A DNA stretch of 64,000 bases from an uncultured Alphaproteobacteria bacterium (GTDB taxonomy: Bacteria; Pseudomonadota; Alphaproteobacteria; RF32; CAG-239), in assembly GCA_944393235.1 (NCBI GenBank), contig CALXZJ010000001.1:14096-78095 (forward strand). The letters are read 5' to 3'. Under the pieces are notes generated by a model. The model saw only the letters and a program-made list of their open reading frames with translations, ran no database searches and was not told where the DNA came from. Positions 11,151 to 51,004 of this stretch are shown here, piece by piece. How positions within the stretch are numbered: position 1 is the first letter of the stretch; each line of letters begins with the position of its first letter. Position numbers and translations under genes: made by a program.

Positions 11151-14100
11151 ATGACCGTTCCATTTTTCAAAAAAGCAATCTGTTTGCTTTTAATGCCGCT
11201 GTTAATCATCAGCACGGCGATTCCGCCGGCAAGCGCTGCTTATAACAAACTTGCGCCCCATGATTTTTATGAAATGTATGCACTTGCCGCCAATGGCAAA
11301 ATTTCCAAATTAAGCAACGCCATCCACCGCGGTTTGGACATTGATGCCGTAAACCAAAACGGCGACACCGGTTTATGCGTTGCAGCCAAACAAAAAAATG
11401 CCAAAGCATACAACACCTTTCGGAACTTAGGCGCCAACCCCGCGCATCCTTGCACCCGGAACATTCCTCACTATCAGTCATTTGTCAATTCGCGTGCCGT
11501 GCAAGCCGGTGCTTTTTGGCAAGAAAGCAGCTATGCACCGCCGGCATACAACATGGAAAACTCCAGCTCCGACAAATGGAAACTCGCCGGCCTTTTATTA
11601 CTATTAGGCGGCGGAGCCGCAATCTTATTAAGCGGCGGCGGTGGTGGCGGCGGTAGCGATGATGAACCTGCTGAAAACCCGGGCTTGAGCTGCGAATACG
11701 GCTGCGCCGAAGAAGACGAAAACGGCAACTGCCTTGTCTGCAATGATGCCCCGGATCCTGCAGATCCCTGTGAAGAAGATCCGTGTGCGGAAGGTTGTTA
11801 TACCAATATTACCTGCGGTCCGGGTGAAACCTGCAGTCAGCAAAATGCTTGCGGCGGTTGTGAAGCATGTACGGCAACGGAAGAGCCTCCGGCCGAAGAA
11901 TGGGAGGAATTTGCCTTACAATTTTACATGTCTTCCAGCCACACAAGCTTTGAAAATGAAGAAGATATATATCATGAAAAGCCTGAAGATGTTTATGCCG
12001 AAATGGGGTATTGGGGGGGAATTAATGCTGGTCAGGGTTTTCTAACAAATACCGGAAACATAACTTTGACATCATCCGATAGTTTTTCCAGTACATGGGG
12101 GTTTGGGATTTTTAAAGGAAACTTCGACGACCGCTCTGATCTTTTAACCGATACAATGTGGAGTGCTGATTATGGTTTGACAAATTCCGGGGATATTACA
12201 ATTGATGCCCCTTCCGCTGCAACTTTGGGCATATTTACCCAAACACTTGGACAAATGGGGGATCGTGTCTTGGAGAAAATAGAATCTTTGGTAAATGAAG
12301 GAAAGATTACAATAACCGGAACCAACTCCAGCGGTATTATGCTTGTCGGCAACGGCAAACTTGACAATTCCGGTGCGATTAACATAAGCGGTCAGATGAA
12401 AAAGTCTAGACAGGGAGCTTTGTATAGTATGTATGGAACATATTCTACTCAAGCCGTTGTTGATGATAATTATATTTATCAATATGTTATGCCCACATTT
12501 CGCAATGCTGGTATATTTTTTGCCAACCATGACAGGGGGTATGGTATTGAATCGGTAATGAACAACAGCGTTACCAATTCCGGTGATATTACCTTAAATC
12601 TGGATAGTGATACCATAGATTTGGATACGCCTTTTGCGTCTGTCGGCGAAGATGAAGAGTTTCAAACCGCTGCCGGTATCAGCGTTGATTATTCGCCTCT
12701 AAATGAATATGACTTGTTAACGGTTTCAAATTCCGGCAATATTGATATTAATTTTACGTCCAGCCTGCTGGAAGAGAGTGAAGCTGATGCTGAGGCTATA
12801 TTTGCCGCACGGAAACGCTATTATATTGTCGGCTTAAATATTTCTTCTACAGAAGAAGGCAAAGATTTACTTAATGTTGAAAATACCGGAACTATATCTT
12901 TATCCGGTAATGGCTCAATGCATGGCATTGCTGCCAAAAATGCCGTTATTGAAAACAAAGGCAATATTTTTATTGATATGAACAGTCAAAAGTATGATGC
13001 CGAAACCCGTAATTTTGTATCTGTCGGTATACTGGCACAAGATTCTGTTATTAATCAATATGCCAATATTGACTATCAAATTTCCGGTGCCGGCGGTTCT
13101 TTTTATTCCGCGGCCATGTACAATAGTACCTTGAATGTCGGTCCTGATGCAAAAATTTCCGGCACCGTTGCTGCATATAACAGTACCGTTAATAATCTCG
13201 GAACAATTGAAGTGTCCGGGCAATCTGCAGATGAGAGTACTTACGGTCTTTGGCTGACCGGTGATTCCGGCGGCTATAATGAAGGGGTTATCCATGTTGA
13301 TGCATCCCAAAACGGTATTGGTGTTTATGCCGAACAAACAGAAACTGACGGTTTCGAAAACAAAGGTAGTATTATAGTTAATTCAACCAATGGCATCGGC
13401 ATGTATGCTAACAGCTATGAAGGCGGTATTCACGACCGTTATGTCAGACTTATCAACAGTGGTACGATTTCGGTTACCGGGGATAACAGTGTCGGTATGT
13501 ATGCCAACGGTGCCAATTCCGTTATTGTTAATACCGGAGAAATTATTGTTTCCGGCAATAACAGTCAGGAAACAGATACTGCGAATCGCGGTACATTTTC
13601 AGACGGCAGTAAAACAGAGGCACAGGCGTTCAGGCTTGTAAACGGTGCAGCGCTTTATAACCTTGGCACGCTGGAATCCGATGGTAATCTGGATTTTGAT
13701 GCTCTGACGGATAATCAAAGTAAAGTTATTGCTGGAAAAAGTTCTGTTATTAAGGCCGAAAGTGTTAACGGAACATTGTATGCAAGTGCAGATATTACCA
13801 CCGGCAGTAATGAGGATTATTATGAAAGCCGTGTGATTGAGGCAGAAGAAAACAATGCTACAGCAGCCTCCAACAGTGCCATGTTTGCTGCAGAAATGGC
13901 TGGCGATAAAATGGTCATGACGCGCTATGATTTTAATGAAATCGTAGCAGATAAAAATTTGGCGGCATATCTTGAGAATAATTATCAACAAGGTAACAGA
14001 GTTGATTTGTATGATACGTTTAAAGCTGCCCAAGATACTGAAGTTTTAAACAGCACAATCAGTTCTATGCTGGGAGCAGATTTTGTGCCGGCATTGGCGT

Positions 14101-14975
14101 ATCAGAATCTTGAGCGCGTACGTTATATTAACCGCACAATGGCGGATTTGATGCAGAACAATCAGTCCGATAAAGACGAACGCGTGAGTGTTATTTCCAA
14201 TAATTATTATCATGATATCAAAGCGCACGGCGGTGTCAGCGGTTATGAGGAAAAGCTGTTCGGTTTCAACGGCTTGTTTGATAAAAAAATTAATAATAAT
14301 TTTCGTTACGGCATTGGTTTGGGGCTTTACCGGGTAAATGTTGATTTTGATGACGGAATTGACCGCAATGATAATTTGTTTGAGGTTTATAATCCGTACT
14401 GGTTTGATTATGAACGCTGGGGCGCGCTTATTATGCCGTATGCCGGTTACAGCGACGGCGATTATGACCGCCGGGAAAATTCTAAAAAATACAGCGCGGA
14501 TTTAAAAGCCTGGTATTACGGCTTAAACAACCGTATTTACCTTAAAAATCAGGCTGCCGGTTTAGAAATCCGGCCGACGGCAGAATTAAACCTGAACGGC
14601 ATTTATCAGGATAATTTCAGCGAAGATGACGGGCTTTCGGTTAAAGGCAAAAATATGTTTTCAGCCGAGGCCGGGTTAGGCGCTTATGTTTCCAAGGCGG
14701 CGGATTTTGGCACCAAAGGCAAGCTCAACCTTAAAGCCGGCGCCATGTATTACTACGAGCTAAATGATGATGCCTACCAAAGCATTAATGCCCGTTTTGC
14801 CGGCATGAACGGCATGTATTATCTTGACGGATATGATAACCGCCGCAGCCGCGGCATTGTCAGCTTAAAAGCCAATTACCAATTCAAAGGTTGGAATTTG
14901 TATGCCGAAATCACACGCCTGCTTGAACATAACGACAATATGGTATATAATGCCGGCTTAAAGTACAGCTTTTAA
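11151..14975 (+). CDS. autotransporter outer-membrane protein with ankyrin-like repeats, Cys-rich module and repetitive passenger
   Basis: GAGGAG RBS. AxA signal peptide, 2 ankyrin-like repeats (NQNGDTGLCVAAKQKNAKAYNTFRNLGANP), hydrophobic/Gly segment, 14-Cys module. Passenger repeats of NSGDIT/NTGTISLSGN type. C-terminal amphipathic beta-strand region ends in the aromatic residue YSF. Confidence 0.8.
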   Translation: MTVPFFKKAICLLLMPLLIISTAIPPASAAYNKLAPHDFYEMYALAANGKISKLSNAIHRGLDIDAVNQNGDTGLCVAAKQKNAKAYNTFRNLGANPAHPCTRNIPHYQSFVNSRAVQAGAFWQESSYAPPAYNMENSSSDKWKLAGLLLLLGGGAAILLSGGGGGGGSDDEPAENPGLSCEYGCAEEDENGNCLVCNDAPDPADPCEEDPCAEGCYTNITCGPGETCSQQNACGGCEACTATEEPPAEEWEEFALQFYMSSSHTSFENEEDIYHEKPEDVYAEMGYWGGINAGQGFLTNTGNITLTSSDSFSSTWGFGIFKGNFDDRSDLLTDTMWSADYGLTNSGDITIDAPSAATLGIFTQTLGQMGDRVLEKIESLVNEGKITITGTNSSGIMLVGNGKLDNSGAINISGQMKKSRQGALYSMYGTYSTQAVVDDNYIYQYVMPTFRNAGIFFANHDRGYGIESVMNNSVTNSGDITLNLDSDTIDLDTPFASVGEDEEFQTAAGISVDYSPLNEYDLLTVSNSGNIDINFTSSLLEESEADAEAIFAARKRYYIVGLNISSTEEGKDLLNVENTGTISLSGNGSMHGIAAKNAVIENKGNIFIDMNSQKYDAETRNFVSVGILAQDSVINQYANIDYQISGAGGSFYSAAMYNSTLNVGPDAKISGTVAAYNSTVNNLGTIEVSGQSADESTYGLWLTGDSGGYNEGVIHVDASQNGIGVYAEQTETDGFENKGSIIVNSTNGIGMYANSYEGGIHDRYVRLINSGTISVTGDNSVGMYANGANSVIVNTGEIIVSGNNSQETDTANRGTFSDGSKTEAQAFRLVNGAALYNLGTLESDGNLDFDALTDNQSKVIAGKSSVIKAESVNGTLYASADITTGSNEDYYESRVIEAEENNATAASNSAMFAAEMAGDKMVMTRYDFNEIVADKNLAAYLENNYQQGNRVDLYDTFKAAQDTEVLNSTISSMLGADFVPALAYQNLERVRYINRTMADLMQNNQSDKDERVSVISNNYYHDIKAHGGVSGYEEKLFGFNGLFDKKINNNFRYGIGLGLYRVNVDFDDGIDRNDNLFEVYNPYWFDYERWGALIMPYAGYSDGDYDRRENSKKYSADLKAWYYGLNNRIYLKNQAAGLEIRPTAELNLNGIYQDNFSEDDGLSVKGKNMFSAEAGLGAYVSKAADFGTKGKLNLKAGAMYYYELNDDAYQSINARFAGMNGMYYLDGYDNRRSRGIVSLKANYQFKGWNLYAEITRLLEHNDNMVYNAGLKYSF

Positions 14976-20085: not shown

Positions 20086-20136
20086 CATTTTTTTGCAATT
20101 ATAAATTATAAGGGTGGGGATAACTTACAATCTATC

Positions 20137-20500
20137 GTCATGCCACTGCCGAGCAATGCTCGGCAGTTCAGGCATCTCTTCCTTTTTTCTCTGTCATGCC
20201 TCCGAGGTGTTGAAAACACCGAGGATAAGGCATCTCTTCCTTTTTTCTCTGTCATGCCTCCGAGGTGTTGAAAACACCGAGGATAAGGCATCTCTTCTCT
20301 ATATGTGCAACAGACGCCTAACCTCGAGTGCTGCGCACTCTCAAGGCGTGACAGAGAGGAACGAGCCGACGGCCACACACACCCTCGTCACCCCACGAGG
20401 ATACGCCAGCCCCACACCCTCGTCACCCCACGAGGATACGCCAGCCTCTAACCCCGTCACCCCACGAGCCGACAACGTCGGCGAGTTTAGGGGTCTCCCC
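20137..20500. repeat. modular palindromic repeat array A (downstream of pilin-like gene 1)
   Basis: Perfect palindrome CTGCCGAGCA-A-TGCTCGGCAG at 20146..20166. 58-bp tandem repeat at 20171..20286. Hairpin repeats CCTCGTCACCCCACGAGGATACGCCAGCC x2 at 20380..20446. GAGTTTAGGGGTCTCCCC at 20483..20500. All modules recur at 48463..48680. Confidence 0.75.
20171..20286. repeat. 58-bp perfect tandem direct repeat (2 copies plus partial third)
   Basis: GGCATCTCTTCCTTTTTTCTCTGTCATGCCTCCGAGGTGTTGAAAACACCGAGGATAA repeated head-to-tail. Contains a GGTGTT-GAA-AACACC hairpin. Confidence 0.8.
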
Positions 20501-20663
20501 TCCTTATCTAAAAGCAAACTCCCGCAACTTTTGTTACGAGAGTTTTTTTAGGGGAAAATATTATTTTTTTACGGCTAGGGAACCGATAAATAATATTTCC
20601 GTTTTTTTATGCCTCAAAGCCGCGTATAGGGATTGCCGCTCTCAAGCATAAAACACTCTTATA

Positions 20664-21320
20664 TTAGTAATATTTCCAAGCCACAGCGTTGGTAGAACCC
20701 GATCCAGCACATAAACCAACAGCTTTAGTAACGGTCATCGGTGTTCTTTGAGTTGCAGTTGTTGCACCAGGAATACTTACATCATCATTGCCGTCTGCAG
20801 TGGTGGTAAAAATATTCGCTAACTTGCCACTAGGCACGCCCTTACCGCCATTAGTTGTTGCAGTACCGGCAGATATACCAATCAAGCCGGAAGCCTGACC
20901 GGAACCCCAGTCACCGGTTGCAATCGTCACACAAGCTTCAGAAGACAAACCGGCATATTCAATAATGAAAGCTTCATTATCATTTAAGGCGCGGCCACCA
21001 GCTGCAGCAATGGTTACATCACCGCCAAAGGCATTTGTAATGTCGGATGTGCTGGCTGAACCGGCATTATACATATCTTCCGGAACCACACCGAATTTAA
21101 TGGCTTGTGCATTACTTAACCCCTGATAATTACCCTGTGAAGAGAACAACGTACGGATGTTGGCAACCAACATGGAAACTTGGTCTGTTGTTTTGTTGAT
21201 TTTGTATTTGTTCATGGCTTTGGAATAACCGGCAATACCACCAACCGACAGAACGCCGATAATCGCCAAAACGCCCAACATTTCGACCATCGAACGGCCG
21301 TTTTCATTAATATGTTTCAT
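20664..21320 (-). CDS. type IV pilin-like protein (prepilin-type N-terminus), paralog 1
   Basis: MKHINENG|RSMVEMLGVLAIIGVLSVGG has Gly before a hydrophobic helix and Glu at +5, as in class III/type IV prepilins. C-terminal Cys pair. AAGGAAGG RBS. The ORF-track start at 21398 is a 26-aa over-extension. Confidence 0.7.
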   Translation of the reverse strand: MKHINENGRSMVEMLGVLAIIGVLSVGGIAGYSKAMNKYKINKTTDQVSMLVANIRTLFSSQGNYQGLSNAQAIKFGVVPEDMYNAGSASTSDITNAFGGDVTIAAAGGRALNDNEAFIIEYAGLSSEACVTIATGDWGSGQASGLIGISAGTATTNGGKGVPSGKLANIFTTTADGNDDVSIPGATTATQRTPMTVTKAVGLCAGSGSTNAVAWKYY

Positions 21321-21844
21321 AGTAACCTTCCTTTTTTGTAAGTAAAAATCCTTAAAAAAAATCGCTTTCAAAAACCAAAAGCGACCGGAAGTAGACAACT
21401 ATGACAACGATATAGCGCGGTATATTGACCGCAAGGCTTATTCTACCGCCTTCCGGTCATTTTATAACAAACAACCAGTCGGCGTATAATGTTTAACGTC
21501 CTATACTTGCAGACGCGTTGTCATGGAATGTCTAATTCCCAGACGGCCAACACAGCCATCTTGCCTATAAGCATAAAAAAAATAGCAGAAAATGTCAATC
21601 AGACAATAGGCATATAACTTTGGTCATACCTTATCAAACAATCAATAGGCAATAATGCCTTCGAGGGTGCTGTCCTTTTTCTATCGTTAAATCTCCGAGG
21701 CACTAAAAGCGCTAAAGATTTGCATCGCAAACCAAACATCATATGCTCACCTGTTTATATGTTAGAAATTTTAGCTTGCAAATTTGAAAGGTTGCCTTAT
21801 ATTCTGCATAGAATTTATAGTAATTTTTAGTTAAGGAGAATGTT

Positions 21845-42112: not shown

Positions 42113-43366
42113 TCAACCACGCTCGCGCTGCCCTCGGCTACGCATCATACTTATCTGATCAAAAACAGCCTGCTCAAAAACTTTGTTTTTTCCGGAATCA
42201 TCTTTCGACTGCCGCAATTTATTTTCTTGCTCGATTTTTTTAGCCTGCTCATATGCTGCATAATCCGTAATATCAATATGTTGCGGCGTTGGATTTTCCT
42301 TATCTTCAGAACGACTGGCCATAACTTCGCGTTTATGTTTTTCAATAATTTTTCGCATTTCGCTATTATGTTCTTTGGCAATAGAATCCTGCTTTTCATC
42401 ACGAGCCTGATGGAACTGCTCCATAATTTCTTCATCTTTCGGATCCGGTCGTCCCACCACGGCATTATAAAGTTGTTTGCCGGATTTCAACAACTGTGCC
42501 ACCGTAATTCCCGGATGCTTAGTTAAATCCCAAACACCGGCGGTACCGCGCCCATCAAAAAATTCTGTAAAATCGACACCCCTGAATTTCTTCTTTTTTC
42601 TTTTAGGCGCCAAAATCTGGCGCAGTTCTTTCGGTGTCGGCATCCGCCCCAACGCTTGCGCTATTTGTTCAGGGCTAATAATACATTCGCTTAAATCCAA
42701 TTCATAAACATTAACACCGGTAAAATCGACACCCGTAAAATCAACCCCTCTTAAGTCAACCATACTCAAATCGATTCGAGAGAAATCAAGCAATGTCAGA
42801 TTCATCCGTCTAAGATTTAATTTATGCGGATAATAAACAGCTAAAAACTCCACCAATGCCTGCAATTCTTCAATTGCCAGCGCATCCATTTCCACATCAA
42901 GCAAAATGGCATCTTGAATATCGGCATCAACCAAAACCACGCCATTCATCTTGGCGCCGGTAAAATTAGTTCCGCGCAGCCGAGCACCCGTAAAAACCGC
43001 CCCGTTCAGGTTTGCGCCGCTTAAATTAGCGCCTGACAAATCGGCATCCGAAAAATCTGCTCCATCTAATTTAGCATGAGAAAAATCCGTTTCTCTTAAA
43101 TCAGCACCGGAAAAAACCGCTTTTTGCAAATTTTCACCAGCATATTTCCCGCCGCACAACACTTTTCCGCTAAAATTAAAATCATTGTTTTGCAAAGAAG
43201 CTGAAATTTCTGATATGGATTTTGGTTCTGTAACAGCTTTTGAAATTGCCTGCCAGGAAAAATTATTTTGATACATCCTTTCGACATCGACATCATCATT
43301 CCGCACCGCTTTAACCTTATTGCGGATAGCCGGAATATGAAATGTTTTTTTGTCGTTTGCTGACAT
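42113..43366 (-). CDS. pentapeptide repeat-containing protein
   Basis: Two blocks of A(D/N)LSG-type pentapeptide repeats (ADLSGANLSGANLNGAVFTGARLRGTNFTG...). K-rich patch KRKKKK. C-terminal charged region. Confidence 0.8.
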   Translation of the reverse strand: MSANDKKTFHIPAIRNKVKAVRNDDVDVERMYQNNFSWQAISKAVTEPKSISEISASLQNNDFNFSGKVLCGGKYAGENLQKAVFSGADLRETDFSHAKLDGADFSDADLSGANLSGANLNGAVFTGARLRGTNFTGAKMNGVVLVDADIQDAILLDVEMDALAIEELQALVEFLAVYYPHKLNLRRMNLTLLDFSRIDLSMVDLRGVDFTGVDFTGVNVYELDLSECIISPEQIAQALGRMPTPKELRQILAPKRKKKKFRGVDFTEFFDGRGTAGVWDLTKHPGITVAQLLKSGKQLYNAVVGRPDPKDEEIMEQFHQARDEKQDSIAKEHNSEMRKIIEKHKREVMASRSEDKENPTPQHIDITDYAAYEQAKKIEQENKLRQSKDDSGKNKVFEQAVFDQISMMRSRGQRERG

Positions 43367-45514: not shown

Positions 45515-46438
45515 TTAATGTTTTAGCAATTCGTCTGTATCAAAAACATATTTTTCCGAACAAAAACTGCAAGTGGCGGTAATTTTTCCGTTATCAGACA
45601 TCTCTTCAATTTCATCCTTACCAAAACCGCTCAGAGTCGAAAACAACTTATCGCGGCTGCAGCGGCATCCGAATTCATACCTCTTTTCTTTGCCGATTTC
45701 CAACTTATGGGCATGAAACAAACGATACAAAATTTCTTCCGAACTTAAATCGGCATTAAAAATCTCATCGGCGGACAAACTGCCGATAAAGACCTCTGCT
45801 TCGTTCCATACTTCTTTCAAAACGTCTTCATCTTCTAAAAATTCTTTGCCGCCTTTGACCGGCACTTTTTGCAGCAAAATCCCTGCCGCCTGCCAGCTTT
45901 GGCTCTCGCCTTGCGGATGCTTGACGAACAACTTCAAAATCGTGTCGATTTGTTCCGATTGTTTAAAATAACGCAACGCCAACTCGGTCAAATTTTTTCC
46001 CTGCAAATCAACCACGCCTTGATAAAGCTCGGTTTCCGGTCCCTGATCAATGGTAAAAGCCATATAACCGCCGCCCACCAGATGCGGAACTTCCTCAATT
46101 TCATCTTCCGTTTTGCGTAAAGCTTTGGCTTGGTCAAGCTTATCTTCATCAAATTTGGCTGAAGCGCGCACTTTTCCTTCTGAGGTTACATCGGCAACCA
46201 ACAGCGAAACCGGTCCATTGCCTTGAATTTGCAGCGTAAACAATCCTTTATATTTCAAAGCATTTGCCAGCAGCACCGCCAATGCCGTCGTTTCGGACAA
46301 AGCCGCTGACACGTTTACGGGGTAATCATGGCGTTTCAAAATATCTTGCAAAACATCGTTTAAGCGCACCAAGCGACCGGCAAACGCACCGTTATGAATA
46401 TGAAAAGACACACAATTGTCAAAATTTTTGTTACTCAA
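45515..46438 (-). CDS. hslO: Hsp33 family redox-regulated chaperone
   Basis: C-terminal CxC...CxxC zinc centre (CRCSRD...CSFCSEKY). TTG start with AAAGGA RBS. Confidence 0.9.
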   Translation of the reverse strand: MSNKNFDNCVSFHIHNGAFAGRLVRLNDVLQDILKRHDYPVNVSAALSETTALAVLLANALKYKGLFTLQIQGNGPVSLLVADVTSEGKVRASAKFDEDKLDQAKALRKTEDEIEEVPHLVGGGYMAFTIDQGPETELYQGVVDLQGKNLTELALRYFKQSEQIDTILKLFVKHPQGESQSWQAAGILLQKVPVKGGKEFLEDEDVLKEVWNEAEVFIGSLSADEIFNADLSSEEILYRLFHAHKLEIGKEKRYEFGCRCSRDKLFSTLSGFGKDEIEEMSDNGKITATCSFCSEKYVFDTDELLKH

Positions 46439-47105: not shown

Positions 47106-47588
47106 TCAACGCCGCGGCGCATTGCGAAAATGGGCATGGGTAATGGCAATTGCCAACGCATCCGACGAGTCGTTATTTTTCGGCTTACATCCGGGGAGCA
47201 AAACTTTAACCATTGTTTCTACCTGATCTTTAGCCGCCTTGCCGACGCCGACCGTCGCCTTTTTGACCTTGTTCGGCTCATACTCAAACAGCGGAATACT
47301 ATACGTCCCCGGCGCCAAAATCACCACCCCGCGCGCCATGCTTAATTTTAAAGTGGAATGCGGATTCGTATTGAGAAAAACAATTTCGATTGCCGCCTCA
47401 TCGGGCTTGTAAGTTTCAATCACATTGCAAATGCTGCGATAAAGAAAATCCAACCGCTGTTCAATCGGAAGTTTAGCATCTGTTGGGATAAAACCGTCGG
47501 CGATATAACGCAGACGGTTGTTTTCCACCTCAATAACCCCCCATCCGGTAGAGGAAAGGCTGGGGTCAAGTCCCAACACTTTAACCAA
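47106..47588 (-). CDS. ruvC: crossover junction endodeoxyribonuclease RuvC
   Basis: VLGLDPSLSSTGWGV N-terminus with catalytic Asp residues. Confidence 0.9.
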   Translation of the reverse strand: MVKVLGLDPSLSSTGWGVIEVENNRLRYIADGFIPTDAKLPIEQRLDFLYRSICNVIETYKPDEAAIEIVFLNTNPHSTLKLSMARGVVILAPGTYSIPLFEYEPNKVKKATVGVGKAAKDQVETMVKVLLPGCKPKNNDSSDALAIAITHAHFRNAPRR

Positions 47589-47591
47589 AAT

Positions 47592-48347
47592 TTATTCCTG
47601 TTCCAATTGCGCCATCACCTCGTCGGCGATTTCCGCATTGTGATAAACGTGTTGCACGTCGTCATCTTCTTCCAACGCGTCAATAAATTCCAAAAACTTT
47701 TTCGCCGTTTCCAAATCGGTGATTTCGGTTTTAACCATCGGTTTCCAGTCCAAACGCGAAACCGAAGGCGTACCGAATTGTTTTTCCAACGCATCGGTAA
47801 CGGCTGACAAATCATCCGGCAAAGTTTCGATTTCATGAAATTCTTCATCTGAAACCACATCATTAGCACCGGCTTCCAAAGCCGCCTCAAACATTTTATC
47901 AGCTTCTGCTGCCGCCGCCGGATATTGAATATGGCCGATTCGTTCAAAATTAAACGTCACCGAACCACTTTCACCCATCGCACCGCCACGCTTACCGAAA
48001 ATCGTGCGGACATTGCCGGCTGTACGGTTTTTATTATCAGTCAAAGCTTCAACAATAACAGCGGCTTTGTTGGGCGCATAACCTTCATAACGCATGCTGA
48101 CAAAATCAGCGCCGCCGGCAGTTTGCGTAGCTTTGGCAATAGCACGTTCAATATTGTCTTTGGGCATACTTTCCGCACGTGCGGCTTGAATCGCCAGACG
48201 CAAGCGCGGGTTTTTATCAGGCTCCGGCAAGCCGCTTTTGGCAGCCACCGTAATTTCTCGAGCCAATTTGGCAAACACACGGGCTTTTTTGGCGTCTTGT
48301 GCGCCTTTACGATACATAATATTTTTAAACTGCGAATGTCCGGACAT
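47592..48347 (-). CDS. yebC: YebC/PmpR family DNA-binding transcriptional regulator
   Basis: MSGHSQFKNIMYRKGAQDAKK N-terminus. Conserved yebC-ruvC adjacency. Confidence 0.9.
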   Translation of the reverse strand: MSGHSQFKNIMYRKGAQDAKKARVFAKLAREITVAAKSGLPEPDKNPRLRLAIQAARAESMPKDNIERAIAKATQTAGGADFVSMRYEGYAPNKAAVIVEALTDNKNRTAGNVRTIFGKRGGAMGESGSVTFNFERIGHIQYPAAAAEADKMFEAALEAGANDVVSDEEFHEIETLPDDLSAVTDALEKQFGTPSVSRLDWKPMVKTEITDLETAKKFLEFIDALEEDDDVQHVYHNAEIADEVMAQLEQE

Positions 48348-48462
48348 TTTTCATATTCTCCTAAAAAACTGTTCTTTGTAAGCTGCTTATAAACCATGAC
48401 ATTGTTTTCGGCAACATTTTTTTTCATGCAAAACAAAAAAATTATTTTCCGCCACATCATCC

Positions 48463-48680
48463 ACAACCCAACCTCATCACCCCATGAGGATACGTCAACC
48501 CCTAACATCCTCACCCCACGAGGATACATTAGCATCCGAGTTTAGGGGTCTCCCAAAGGACGCCTTAATCGCCACGTAATAGCGCGTCGGTGGCGTGACA
48601 GCACAAAACGTCATGCCACTGCCGAGCACTGCTCGGCAGTTTAGGCATCTCTTCCCTTGTGCGTGCAACAGCCGCCCTGC
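48463..48680. repeat. modular palindromic repeat array B (downstream of pilin-like gene 2)
   Basis: CCTCATCACCCCATGAGG and CCTCACCCCACGAGG hairpins. GAGTTTAGGGGTCTCCC at 48538..48554. Palindrome CTGCCGAGCA-C-TGCTCGGCAG at 48619..48639. GGCATCTCTTCCC and TGTGCGTGCAACAG. Same modules as array A in a different order. Confidence 0.75.
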
Positions 48681-48742
48681 GTAATAAAAATAGAACCGGC
48701 AAGCCGCCCCTAAAATTAACTTATTTGCCTTTTTTAACAACA

Positions 48743-48772
48743 AAAGACTCCCTTGCAAAAAGGGAGTCTTTT
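48743..48772 (-). terminator. rho-independent terminator 28 nt downstream of pilin-like gene 2
   Basis: 11-bp stem AAAGACTCCCT / AGGGAGTCTTT with a 7-nt loop and flanking T-rich sequence. Confidence 0.6.
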
Positions 48773-48799
48773 GTTTCGGTAAAAACCTAACCAATCGGC

Positions 48800-49456
48800 T
48801 TAGTAGTATTTCCAAGCCACCACATTGGTAGAACCATCACCATTACAAGCAGCAACGGCATTGGTAATTGTCATCGGTGTCGGGTAAGTAGCATCACCCG
48901 GAATAGCTATTGCCGCAGTACCAGTGCTACCGGAAGTATAAATTGTATCCAACGCGGTACCAACACTTGACAATTCACCGGCTTCCGCATTTTCATCAGC
49001 ACCGGCAGTAATAGCAATCAAACCGGAACCTTGACCGGAACCCCAGTCACCGGTGGCAACCGTCACACAAGCTTCAGATGTCAAGCCGGCATATTCGATA
49101 ATGAAAGCTTCATCAGCCTGACCAGCACGAGCCGGAGAAGCTTCAATTGTCACTGCACCGTTAAAAGCATTGTGCATGCTCAAACCACCTGAAGAACCGG
49201 CTTCATACATATCTTCCGGAACCACACCGAATTTAACCGCTGCACTATTGTCCAAACCGTCATAATTGCCCTGTGAAGAGAACAATGTACGGATGTTGGC
49301 AACCAGCATGGAAACTTGGTCTGTTGTTTTGTTGATTTTATATTTGTTCATGGCTTTGGAATAACCGGCAATACCACCAACCGACAGAACGCCGATAATG
49401 GCCAGAACGCCTAACATTTCGACCATCGAACGGCCGTTTTCATTAATATGTTTCAT
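48800..49456 (-). CDS. type IV pilin-like protein (prepilin-type N-terminus), paralog 2
   Basis: First ~65 codons nearly identical at the nucleotide level to 20664..21320. Conserved EAFIIEYAGL...TGDWGSGQ and C-terminal VAWKYY blocks are separated by divergent segments. Confidence 0.7.
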   Translation of the reverse strand: MKHINENGRSMVEMLGVLAIIGVLSVGGIAGYSKAMNKYKINKTTDQVSMLVANIRTLFSSQGNYDGLDNSAAVKFGVVPEDMYEAGSSGGLSMHNAFNGAVTIEASPARAGQADEAFIIEYAGLTSEACVTVATGDWGSGQGSGLIAITAGADENAEAGELSSVGTALDTIYTSGSTGTAAIAIPGDATYPTPMTITNAVAACNGDGSTNVVAWKYY

Positions 49457-49730
49457 AATATTTTCCCCTAAAAAAATATTTCTGTTTACACTTTACATTA
49501 AAAACTATACTGCAAAACATCAATCCCGGCAAGCCTATCTTTAGTCATAAAGAAAGATATATAACCTTATTATCTGGATTAACCCACACAGTACATACCA
49601 AACTGAACATAGTCTTAACTTTCTTAAAAAAGCTTTAATTTTATCTGACTTTTTAAGACAACGGACTTGACTTAAACGCTTAATGTTATACTATCCTGCC
49701 ATACTTGAGATAAATAATTAAGGAGCAAAA

Positions 49731-50531
49731 ATGACTTTTGAAGAACTCGGTTTGAGCGAACAAACCATTAAAGCCATCAAAGAACTTGGCTTTGAATGCC
49801 CGACCACCGTACAAAAAGATGTTATCCCCTCTGTTTTATCCGGCAAAGATATATTTGCCATTGCCCCCGGTCGTTGCGGCAAAACCTGTTCTTATGTTTT
49901 TCCGCTTATAGACATCATCTCCCGCAAACAAGGGCAAAATATCTTGATTATAACTGCCGATTCCAAACAATCGGTTATTGTTTCTGACCGCTTGGCAATC
50001 TTCAATAAATATCACGAAATTAATGAAGAAACTCTGCAGGAAAATACCCAAGACATCAACAATGAAGCCAATGTGATTATTGCCGCACCGGATTTGCTTT
50101 TAGACATTGCCGCCGAAGGCAAAATCGACCTTTCCAAAATCAACATTTTGGTAGTTGATGATATCAATCTCATTAAAAAGAAACACCAATTGTCAAACTT
50201 AGAAAAAGTGTTAGAAATGCTCCCGGCTGAAAAACAAAACATTGTTTTTACCAACCGCCGCTCCAAAGAAACACAAGATATTTTAGATAAAATATTAAAA
50301 ACCCCGGCAGAAATCAAAGTTGACCGTGCCAAAGAAGATGAAGCTTCTTTTGAAGTTTCTGCCGCCGACAAAACAAAAACAGCAGACAAACAAACTGTTC
50401 CAACCCCGACAGCACCCAAACCACAGGTTGATCAAGAAGCTGTCAGCTTAATGAACCAATATAAAACTTTTGGTGATAAAACACCTGCTTTTCTGCTGGT
50501 AAAATGCGAGCTGGCACAAAACGAAAATTAA
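49731..50531 (+). CDS. DEAD-box helicase-like protein, degenerate (RecA-like domain 1 only, low-complexity C-terminus)
   Basis: Q-motif/motif I-like region (PTTVQKDVIPSVLSGKDIFAIAPGRCGKT). DEAD replaced by VVDD. No second helicase domain. K/E/T/P-rich tail. AAGGAG RBS. Confidence 0.55.
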   Translation: MTFEELGLSEQTIKAIKELGFECPTTVQKDVIPSVLSGKDIFAIAPGRCGKTCSYVFPLIDIISRKQGQNILIITADSKQSVIVSDRLAIFNKYHEINEETLQENTQDINNEANVIIAAPDLLLDIAAEGKIDLSKINILVVDDINLIKKKHQLSNLEKVLEMLPAEKQNIVFTNRRSKETQDILDKILKTPAEIKVDRAKEDEASFEVSAADKTKTADKQTVPTPTAPKPQVDQEAVSLMNQYKTFGDKTPAFLLVKCELAQNEN

Positions 50532-50602
50532 TGACAACGCCCTGAAAAAAACGCCGTTATCCTAAAAGATAGCGGCATTTTTTTGTTTTGTTTTTTTAAA
50601 AA

Positions 50603-51004
50603 TTAATTCAATCGGGAACCGTTTTCATAACTCCCGATTAATTGAACCGCCGGAATTTTAATGTCTTTAACAAGATTTTGTTCTTCTTTGACGATTCGGC
50701 AGCTACCGTATAAAACCGCCATTGCCGATTTAACCGGTGCACTGCTGGCAAACTCAAAATATTCTCCCGGTTCAAGTTCCGGAATTTCCCCTTTAAATCC
50801 CGGCGCATTGTCGCAAAAGCTGTTGCCGCGATCGTCAGTAAAATTAAAATCTTTGCCTAATATCTGGATTTTTTCATCTGAATTATTTTCGATTCGCAAA
50901 TAATAACTGCAGCTGTCTGCCTCATCTTCTTCCAAAAAAGCCTGACAAGCCGAAATCACAATATCATCGGTTTGCGCCGTCACATATTCTATATCAAAAT
51001 CCAT
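50603..51004 (-). CDS. apaG: ApaG (DUF525) domain protein
   Basis: About 130 aa. YYLRIENNSDEKIQILGKDFNFTDDRGN...GEIPELEPGEYFEF fits the ApaG pattern. AAGGA RBS. Confidence 0.6.
   Translation of the reverse strand: MDFDIEYVTAQTDDIVISACQAFLEEDEADSCSYYLRIENNSDEKIQILGKDFNFTDDRGNSFCDNAPGFKGEIPELEPGEYFEFASSAPVKSAMAVLYGSCRIVKEEQNLVKDIKIPAVQLIGSYENGSRLN

Follow-up and report, generated by a model that had tools for sequence, protein, structure and literature searches.

Two dispersed type IVb major-pilin genes of an uncultured alphaproteobacterium: a mosaic probably shaped by family-wide constraint and occasional recombination

How can two genes that lie 28 kb apart begin with almost the same nucleotides, share a further block in their middle and the same last codons, and still be strongly diverged in between? 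The question is raised by a 64,000-nucleotide (nt) stretch of DNA from an uncultured human-gut alphaproteobacterium of the RF32 lineage (GenBank assembly GCA_944393235.1, contig CALXZJ010000001.1, positions 14,096 to 78,095), hereafter called the window. A first-pass annotation of the window had read this patchwork as the product of gene conversion between pilin copies, as in the pilE/pilS-type antigenic variation of gonococci. Our data, drawn from these 64 kb and about 570 kb of DNA from relatives, point toward a different explanation: the genes are two dispersed, complete paralogues of a type IVb major pilin, and their mosaic structure most likely reflects constraint on the whole family together with occasional recombination, with no silent-cassette switch. 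The pilin identity, the fold class, the conservation across the family, the age of the loci and the recombination signals are directly supported here. The genes and their parts, as obtained from open reading frames (ORFs), Pfam matches and alignments, are as follows.

20664..21320, minus strand: pilin copy A, a complete gene of 218 amino acids beside the divergently transcribed gene of a fructose-bisphosphate aldolase
48800..49456, minus strand: pilin copy B, a complete gene of 218 amino acids beside the divergently transcribed gene of a DEAD-box helicase
21126..21320, minus strand: 5' constant block of copy A, codons 1-65, with the leader MKHINENG, predicted cleavage before Arg9, Glu13 at +5 and the hydrophobic alpha-1 helix
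49262..49456, minus strand: 5' constant block of copy B, codons 1-65, 188 of 195 nt as in copy A
20976..21125, minus strand: variable alpha-beta loop region of copy A, codons 66-115, variable family-wide
49112..49261, minus strand: variable alpha-beta loop region of copy B, codons 66-115, variable family-wide
20871..20975, minus strand: internal constant block of copy A, codons 116-150 (EAFIIEYAGLSSEACVTIATGDWGSGQASGLI), holding the invariant Cys130, strand-helix-strand in the model
49007..49111, minus strand: internal constant block of copy B, codons 116-150, conserved family-wide, strand-helix-strand in the model
20751..20870, minus strand: hypervariable part of the D-region of copy A, about codons 151-190, between Cys130 and Cys204 (copy B numbering)
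48887..49006, minus strand: hypervariable part of the D-region of copy B, about codons 151-190, where the differences between conspecific alleles cluster

The two minus-strand genes of 218 codons are thus present as first described, and alignment by nucleotide and by codon confirmed their near-identical 5' ends: codons 1-65 encode the same protein with seven synonymous differences in 195 nt (at nt 45, 52, 57, 117, 151, 171 and 189; 96.4% identity). The windowed alignment likewise agrees with the description of a shared internal block and shared last codons separated by diverged segments. In the internal block (EAFIIEYAGL..GDWGSGQ), identity is about 89-93% (89.4% over 113 nt by blastn), with proportions of differing synonymous and nonsynonymous sites (pS and pN) of 0.26 and 0.06, and the final 36 nt are 89% identical. 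The segments between the constant blocks have 33-77% identity per 30-nt window and contain indels; pS and pN rise to 0.54 and 0.33 in the alpha-beta loop region, and identity in the hypervariable part of the D-region, again with indels, is 33-62%. Upstream of the ATG the two copies have no similarity, as had been noted for their 5' regions, and each is equipped with a start codon and a ribosome-binding site of its own. A probe of 23 nt taken from the shared block had two matches in the window, one in each pilin copy, where none is expected by chance. The copies are in direct orientation. They share no exact run longer than about 60 nt, and independent assemblies (six for copy B, three for copy A) reproduced each locus together with its flanks; the arrangement is therefore unlikely to be an assembly artefact.

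Copies A and B are type IVb major pilins. Both proteins exceed the gathering cut-offs of two pilin families in Pfam, PilS_N (PF08805; E = 2e-16 for copy A and 4e-19 for copy B, 60.7-69.3 bits against a cut-off of 22) and Bundlin (PF05307; E = 4e-13 and 3e-12, 47-50 bits against a cut-off of 22.3), and the fold matches are of type IVb, so that the suspected pilin nature of the genes stands. The PilS of PF08805 is the type IVb pilin of Salmonella Typhi and R64 and is unrelated to the silent pilS cassettes of gonococci. TcpA of Vibrio cholerae is the top sequence match among solved structures (E = 3e-5), with sequence identities of 12-23% to pilins of the TcpA/CofA/BfpA class. An AlphaFold model of copy B made with 43 family members had a predicted local distance difference test (pLDDT) score of 77, mostly 70-93 in the globular part. 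The 16 best fold matches found with Foldseek in the PDB were all type IVb pilins (CofA, TcpA and S. Typhi PilS), with E values of 3e-7 to 7e-5 for the CofA and TcpA chains and template modeling (TM) scores of 0.45-0.65; no type IVa pilin was among the significant Foldseek matches in the PDB. The N terminus carries the motif G8/R9-S-M-V-E13, followed by MLGVLAIIGVLSVGGIAG, and so has the Gly (-1), the Glu (+5) and the hydrophobic helix (about 20 residues) that mark the type IV pilin superfamily. Alignment to TcpA sets Glu13 on Glu5 of TcpA, which puts the presumed cleavage site between Gly8 and Arg9; cleavage before Arg9 by a prepilin peptidase is therefore predicted, and the mature protein would have 210 residues. 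Cys130 and Cys204 are invariant in the 43 aligned sequences and enclose a D-region of 74 residues. The Arg at +1, which had been called atypical, is real and is a trait of the whole family, as is the 8-residue leader. A residue other than Phe at this position is normal in type IVb pilins; TcpA, according to the alignment, starts with Met.

Does the patchwork of the two proteins record an exchange between these two genes? A homology search returned at least 7,983 clusters at 90% identity, the best 120 of which share 55-100% identity with copy B. Almost all of these homologues have no protein name; one NCBI record, from an alphaproteobacterial metagenome-assembled genome (MAG), is called "type 4 pilus major pilin". 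The relatives found by scanning genome collections are MAGs of uncultured gut Alphaproteobacteria, mostly from humans and some from rabbits, with two to four copies per genome. In 118 aligned homologues, as well as in 30 genes from 17 other MAGs, the same blocks are constant across many species: conservation is at least 95% over the first ~55 residues of the mature protein, in the internal block around Cys130 and in the VAWKYY strand at the C terminus, and the alpha-beta loop (~66-115) and the D-region (~151-190) vary across the family. Because these blocks are constant in more than 100 homologues, the patchwork of A and B is, at the protein level, the conservation profile of the family and not the mark of an A/B exchange; taken by itself, it does not show that A and B converted one another. 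Among annotated genes, the nearest relatives (24-35% identity) come from enterobacterial plasmids, where they bear the name "type 4 pilus major pilin"; the one examined, on a Salmonella plasmid, sits in an R64-type pil operon. In the literature on the N-terminal motif, on RF32 pilins and on type IVb pilins of gut Alphaproteobacteria we found no publication on this family.

Related MAGs also encode a second class of pilin-like proteins, which have the same GRSMVEMLGVLAIIGVLSVGAIAGYSKAM N terminus and an unrelated, cysteine-rich C-terminal domain without a Pfam domain. Such genes were seen in the loci L041 (174-842 and 5986-6612) and L040 (5647-6612), as well as in L021, L029 and L042, and none was seen in the window. 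They may be minor or alternative pilins. The long N-terminal extension of the L040 protein is an artefact of ORF calling; with a GTG start, its leader has 11 residues.

Both pilin loci are old and predate speciation. The A type of locus, beside the aldolase gene, is present in four other species, and the B type, beside the DEAD helicase gene, in at least 11 other genomes, and 26-47% of the third codon positions of the neighbouring housekeeping genes differ between the species of the window and the others. The translated context upstream of the start is specific for the locus and is kept among orthologs ("KVT-M" at A loci and "ENI-M" at B loci). As to the surroundings of the B locus, the gene order in this species (window 47106-50531) is DEAD helicase, pilin, YebC, RuvC, as in L037; in other species (L011, L012, L016, L020 and others) YebC and RuvC are on the far side of the DEAD helicase gene. 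This difference between species makes the region downstream of the pilin gene a rearrangement junction in this species.

If the constant blocks are explained by the family, is recombination needed at all? The two genes could have diverged plainly after an old duplication, with the identity of the constant blocks maintained by purifying selection that includes the codons or the structure of the 5' mRNA. The blocks are indeed kept at the amino acid level throughout the family, and codon constraint is possible in highly expressed genes, but from genome to genome the third positions of housekeeping genes are no more diverged than the silent sites of the 5' block. Pairs of orthologs or paralogues in other genomes have on average about 0.12 differences per nt in this block (23-25 differences per 165-186 nt), with third-position divergence of 0.26-0.47 in the flanking housekeeping genes between species. 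The silent sites thus change at a normal rate between genomes and are not generally constrained. In the following, WIN_A and WIN_B are the copies in the window, FB_A is the ortholog in the MAG BRZ_FB_bin86 and the suffix gives the type of locus. The outliers are the pair WIN_A/WIN_B, with 6 differences in 186 nt (0.03 per nt; pS 0.16), the pair WIN_A/FB_A, with 2 differences in 186 nt although their housekeeping genes differ by 12-14%, and the pair L029/L030, with none. WIN_B itself is closer in this block to WIN_A (6/186) than to its own orthologs (18/186), and its informative sites are split 15:3 in the 5' part versus 59:61 in the 3' part (p = 0.01).

Furthermore, different segments of one gene have different nearest relatives. 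FB_A is a chimera with a 5' end of the WIN_A type and a 3' part that matches RN_A, without any difference in two segments; its informative sites are split 18:1 in the 5' part versus 8:143 in the 3' part (Fisher p = 3e-17). The alpha-beta loop of the RN_A type is also found in RN_B (p = 3e-5), and the D-region and C terminus of WIN_A are nearest to the B-locus gene of another species (KS_B) and not to the A orthologs (p = 6e-8). With segment histories in conflict at p values down to 3e-17, the view that the genes did not diverge uniformly after an old duplication is upheld, and plain divergence is an improbable explanation. Within the species, two conspecific strains (L045 and L046) have flanks without a single difference from the window (0/801 in the DEAD gene, 0/274 and 0/452 in intergenic DNA) and differ inside copy B at 42 of 462 nt (pS 0.12), most densely at nt 457-535 (pN 0.20-0.25 versus pS 0.20). 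Together, the conflicting histories of segments and the change of alleles within the species indicate that the constant blocks act as anchors for crossovers, both between paralogues and between strains or species. Our data therefore support the conclusion that recombination or gene conversion has shaped the pilin genes. To this extent, that is, in the low pS of the 5' block (0.16) and the conflicts between segments, the earlier reading of gene conversion is retained; what is not retained is the gonococcus-like pilE/pilS system.

That system, in which one or several expression sites would often receive variable minicassettes from silent or paralogous copies, guided by the constant blocks, deserves a closer look. 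It would account for constant blocks flanking variable ones, for the two to four copies in related genomes, for the transfers from paralogue to paralogue (the 5' block in the window, the alpha-beta loop in RN) and for an allele replacement between conspecific strains that is sharply bounded within the gene. Against it stands the completeness of the copies: all 30 copies checked in the 17 other MAGs are complete genes with a full N terminus and a start codon. A search for further or truncated cassettes within the window, by tblastn and by blastn with short words, revealed no truncated or partial pilin copy. Neither strand of the window has a G-quadruplex motif (G3+N1-7 x4), no inverted repeats were seen near either pilin gene, and no recombinase gene is among the neighbours. 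Moreover, an identical copy B allele was found at the same locus on long contigs from six samples of two projects, the variable regions of the A and B types remain specific for their loci across strains, and a donor for the variant tract of L045 was sought among the 120 nearest homologues, where alleles of the same locus were the only ones to share it. Similar imported islands are seen in housekeeping genes. With nothing but complete genes among the copies examined, no truncated cassette or G-quadruplex in the window and a stable B allele in six samples, the claim of pilE/pilS-type antigenic variation is not borne out, and we judge programmed variation of this kind to be unlikely.

CCGG sites bear on both sides of this question. 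Copy B is the 657-nt stretch of the window that is densest in CCGG (12 sites), and copy A has eight (95th percentile); the mean of the window is 4.2. Sites of this class are reported to be cut in gonococcal pilin variation, to which CCGG-cutting restriction systems have been tied (PMC13321361, 2026), and their density in both genes would fit programmed variation. On the other hand, it can be explained by the codons of Ala-Gly, Ser-Gly and Thr-Gly pairs, which are probably its cause.

It is imaginable that the dispersed paralogues (two to four per genome) serve as a mutual archive, from which segments of the loop and of the D-region are exchanged, by gene conversion with the invariant blocks as anchors, often enough to change the surface of the pilus while one host is being colonized. 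We consider this doubtful. Such an exchange might be aided by the dense CCGG sites or by repeats that lie downstream of the two genes, which belong to the following features.

20136..20500: hairpin repeats resembling repetitive extragenic palindromes (REP-like) downstream of copy A; 58 nt are duplicated perfectly in tandem (20170-20285)
48469..48660: REP-like repeat units downstream of copy B, the same units as near copy A, in another order
20516..20545, minus strand: terminator-like hairpin downstream of copy A, from a consensus scan
48737..48776, minus strand: long hairpin directly 3' of the stop codon of copy B (AAACAAAAGACTCCC..GGGAGTCTTTTGTT), read from the sequence and missed by the consensus scan

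Within the 64 kb, the REP-like units (CCTCGTGGGGTGACGAGG, CTGCCGAGCAnTGCTCGGCAG and GAGACCCCTAAACTCG) are confined to the DNA downstream of the two pilin genes. They are restricted to the loci of this species (L001-L009) and absent from 33 loci of related MAGs; the two sites have them in different orders, and strains differ in the number of copies. The hairpin 3' of copy B is a probable terminator, judged from its sequence. A weak hairpin with a T run (GGTCGCTTTTGG..GAAAGCGATTTTTTTTT) lies at 21360-21386 on the minus strand, in the presumed 5' leader about 40 nt upstream of the start of copy A, and could be an attenuator or a chance match. Consensus scans for promoters and terminators gave weak and unspecific matches, and a candidate sigma-54 promoter of copy B was ruled out by eye, with its spacing off by one. 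Rfam had nothing at its gathering thresholds in the window and matches at chance level around both genes; hence, no known riboswitch or small RNA is indicated.

What, then, would assemble the pilus? The neighbours in the window are housekeeping genes (aldolase, nitroreductase, ArgRS, DEAD helicase, YebC, RuvC and others), and the 64 kb hold no pilus assembly gene, as judged from the Pfam context over about 40 kb and inspection of the remaining ORFs. The earlier statement to this effect is therefore correct for the whole window; relatives do carry an R64-like type IVb operon. In L047 (3349-13297), genes for TcpQ, a secretin, PilO, a 472-residue protein of unknown function, T2SSE, T2SSF, a bundlin-like protein of 191 residues and two pilins follow one another, in the order of the R64-type pil operon of the Salmonella plasmid. 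The two tandem pilins share the GRSMVEMLGVLAIIGVLSVGGIAGYSKAM N terminus with copies A and B, and a T2SSE ATPase of the size of PilT is encoded nearby. In L024 (138-6016), a T2SSF platform gene, a bundlin-like gene and a T2SSE ATPase of 317 residues are scattered around the pilin of the B locus. An R64-like assembly operon may thus be expected elsewhere in the genome of this species. Apart from the pilins, the window encodes an autotransporter of 1274 amino acids (11151-14975; Pfam Autotransporter, with a weak BigA_3rd match in an ortholog) and a pentapeptide-repeat protein of 417 amino acids (42113-43366).

The likeness to R64 raises the possibility that the genes do not encode an adhesive or motility pilus at all but secretion pseudopilins, or a thin pilus for DNA uptake or conjugation such as that of R64 PilS. 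PilS_N is the best family and the operon order in L047 matches the thin pilus of R64/IncI, which serves liquid mating; the frequent imports by recombination in this species would also fit a role in DNA exchange. However, the genes are chromosomal and surrounded by housekeeping genes, with no conjugation genes nearby in the window; in mature size (210 residues) and in fold the proteins match major type IVb pilins and not pseudopilins (~140 residues); and neither a PilV shufflon nor Rci was seen in the window or in L047. We therefore regard this explanation as very improbable.

The account preferred here, two complete major-pilin paralogues shaped by family constraint and occasional recombination, has to be weighed against several observations that do not favor it. 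The pilus machinery was seen in relatives and not in the 64 kb examined of this genome, and neither the window nor the loci examined yielded a gene for a prepilin peptidase. Hidden Markov models of the N-terminal methylation domain, the search suggested by the first-pass annotation, stayed below their thresholds (PF07963, 14.4 bits against a cut-off of 21.2; TIGR02532, 11 bits against 16.3), as did the NCBIfam pilin matches in general; it is the pilin families PilS_N and Bundlin that scored above cut-off. The score of the methylation motif is probably lowered by the Arg at +1. The leader of eight residues is shorter than usual for type IVb pilins (~13-30, a tendency of the class and no strict criterion); in the pilins of the relative L047 it has 11 residues. 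Furthermore, direction and donor of the homogenization of the 5' block are indistinguishable from two independent imports from a shared pool. Finally, recombination may be general and not focused on the pilin, as indicated by islands of divergence in housekeeping genes of conspecific strains: with flanks that differ by less than 0.5%, the Hsp33 gene of L002 differs at 99 of 924 nt (window 45515-46438), and in L044 the DEAD gene differs at 80 of 795 and the DUF525 gene at 34 of 402 nt (window 49731-51004). Homologous import appears to be frequent throughout the genome of this species.

In our model, a prepilin peptidase would cut the leader MKHINENG before Arg9, and the hydrophobic helix at the N terminus, which is invariant, would hold the subunit in the membrane and make up the core of the filament. 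The globular domain bears the D-region between Cys130 and Cys204. Copies A and B would be transcribed independently, and their products built into pili by an R64-like machinery whose genes lie elsewhere in the genome. The mosaic would then arise in two layers. In the first, purifying selection across the family preserves the helix, the core sheet with its disulphide cysteines and the C-terminal strand, leaving the alpha-beta loop and the D-region free to vary or under diversifying selection. In the second, occasional homologous recombination would use the constant blocks as crossover anchors; gene conversion between the paralogues of one genome may have been the latest event to homogenize the 5' block in this lineage, and alleles may also be imported between strains and species. 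As a result, the population would harbor a range of mosaic pilin alleles at the two old loci, without a programmed switch of high frequency. Two paralogues may provide alternative or mixed filaments and, at the same time, a local donor for conversion. In the type IVb pilins TcpA and CofA, variable loops are on the surface of the filament, and alleles of tcpA and bfpA vary most in surface regions. By analogy, the variable regions described here would be exposed on the surface, and host immunity, phages or the diversity of receptors may be the selective agent.

The type IVb major pilins described here define a very large family, so far unstudied, that is carried by uncultured gut Alphaproteobacteria and has an almost invariant N terminus of 55 residues, an Arg at +1 and hypervariable surface regions. 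In pathogens, pili of this class are involved in colonization and aggregation and are receptors of phages. Type IVb pili may likewise govern the persistence of a common uncultured gut lineage and its diversification between hosts. Two conserved loci with mosaic alleles would be handy markers of strains and offer a natural system to measure recombination in gut populations. Should the idea of a mutual archive, which we doubt, prove true, it would be the first case in which a type IVb pilus undergoes antigenic variation by gene conversion, and the organism would be a commensal of the human gut.

How does this system compare with those already known? The closest in family and operon is the IncI thin pilus of R64 and S. 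Typhi: the best Pfam match is PF08805, the fold matches include S. Typhi PilS, and the relative L047 has the same operon order (TcpQ-like, secretin, PilO, ATPase, platform, pilin). In contrast to R64/S. Typhi PilS, the genes described here are chromosomal, detached from the operon in the window and duplicated at two housekeeping loci, and they have a leader of eight residues and Arg at +1. Whereas R64 varies its tip adhesin, the variation lies here in the major pilin, and the window and L047 are without the PilV shufflon and the Rci recombinase. The same holds for a comparison with the invertible switches Piv of Moraxella and PilV-Rci of R64, since there are no inverted repeats and no recombinase near copies A and B. 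With TcpA, with CofA/LngA of enterotoxigenic Escherichia coli and with the bundlin BfpA, the proteins share the fold, the Bundlin family match, a mature size of about 200 residues and the two cysteines that bound a large D-region. TcpA, CofA and BfpA, however, are encoded by single-copy genes that head their operons or lie inside them and have leaders of 13-25 residues, unlike the two to four dispersed paralogues per genome and the almost invariant 55-residue N terminus found here.

In pilE/pilS of Neisseria as well as here, constant segments flank variable ones, there is evidence of segments moving between copies and repeats lie downstream. The Neisseria pilins are of type IVa, and neither promoterless truncated cassettes nor G-quadruplexes were found in the window; instead, there are complete copies, 28 kb apart at conserved housekeeping loci, with alleles that are stable across hosts and with downstream repeats that are specific for the species and absent from relatives. 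Streptococcus sanguinis has likewise been described to carry several complete major-pilin genes with N termini in common, PilA1, PilA2 and PilA3 (PMC11121087). Those paralogues are of type IVa and arranged in tandem inside the pil cluster. In sum, mosaicism of pilins by recombination and the diversification of surface proteins between conserved anchors are already well known. The pilins described here are set apart from known type IVb pili by their dispersed chromosomal paralogues, their short leader, the Arg at +1 and an N-terminal third that is extremely conserved.

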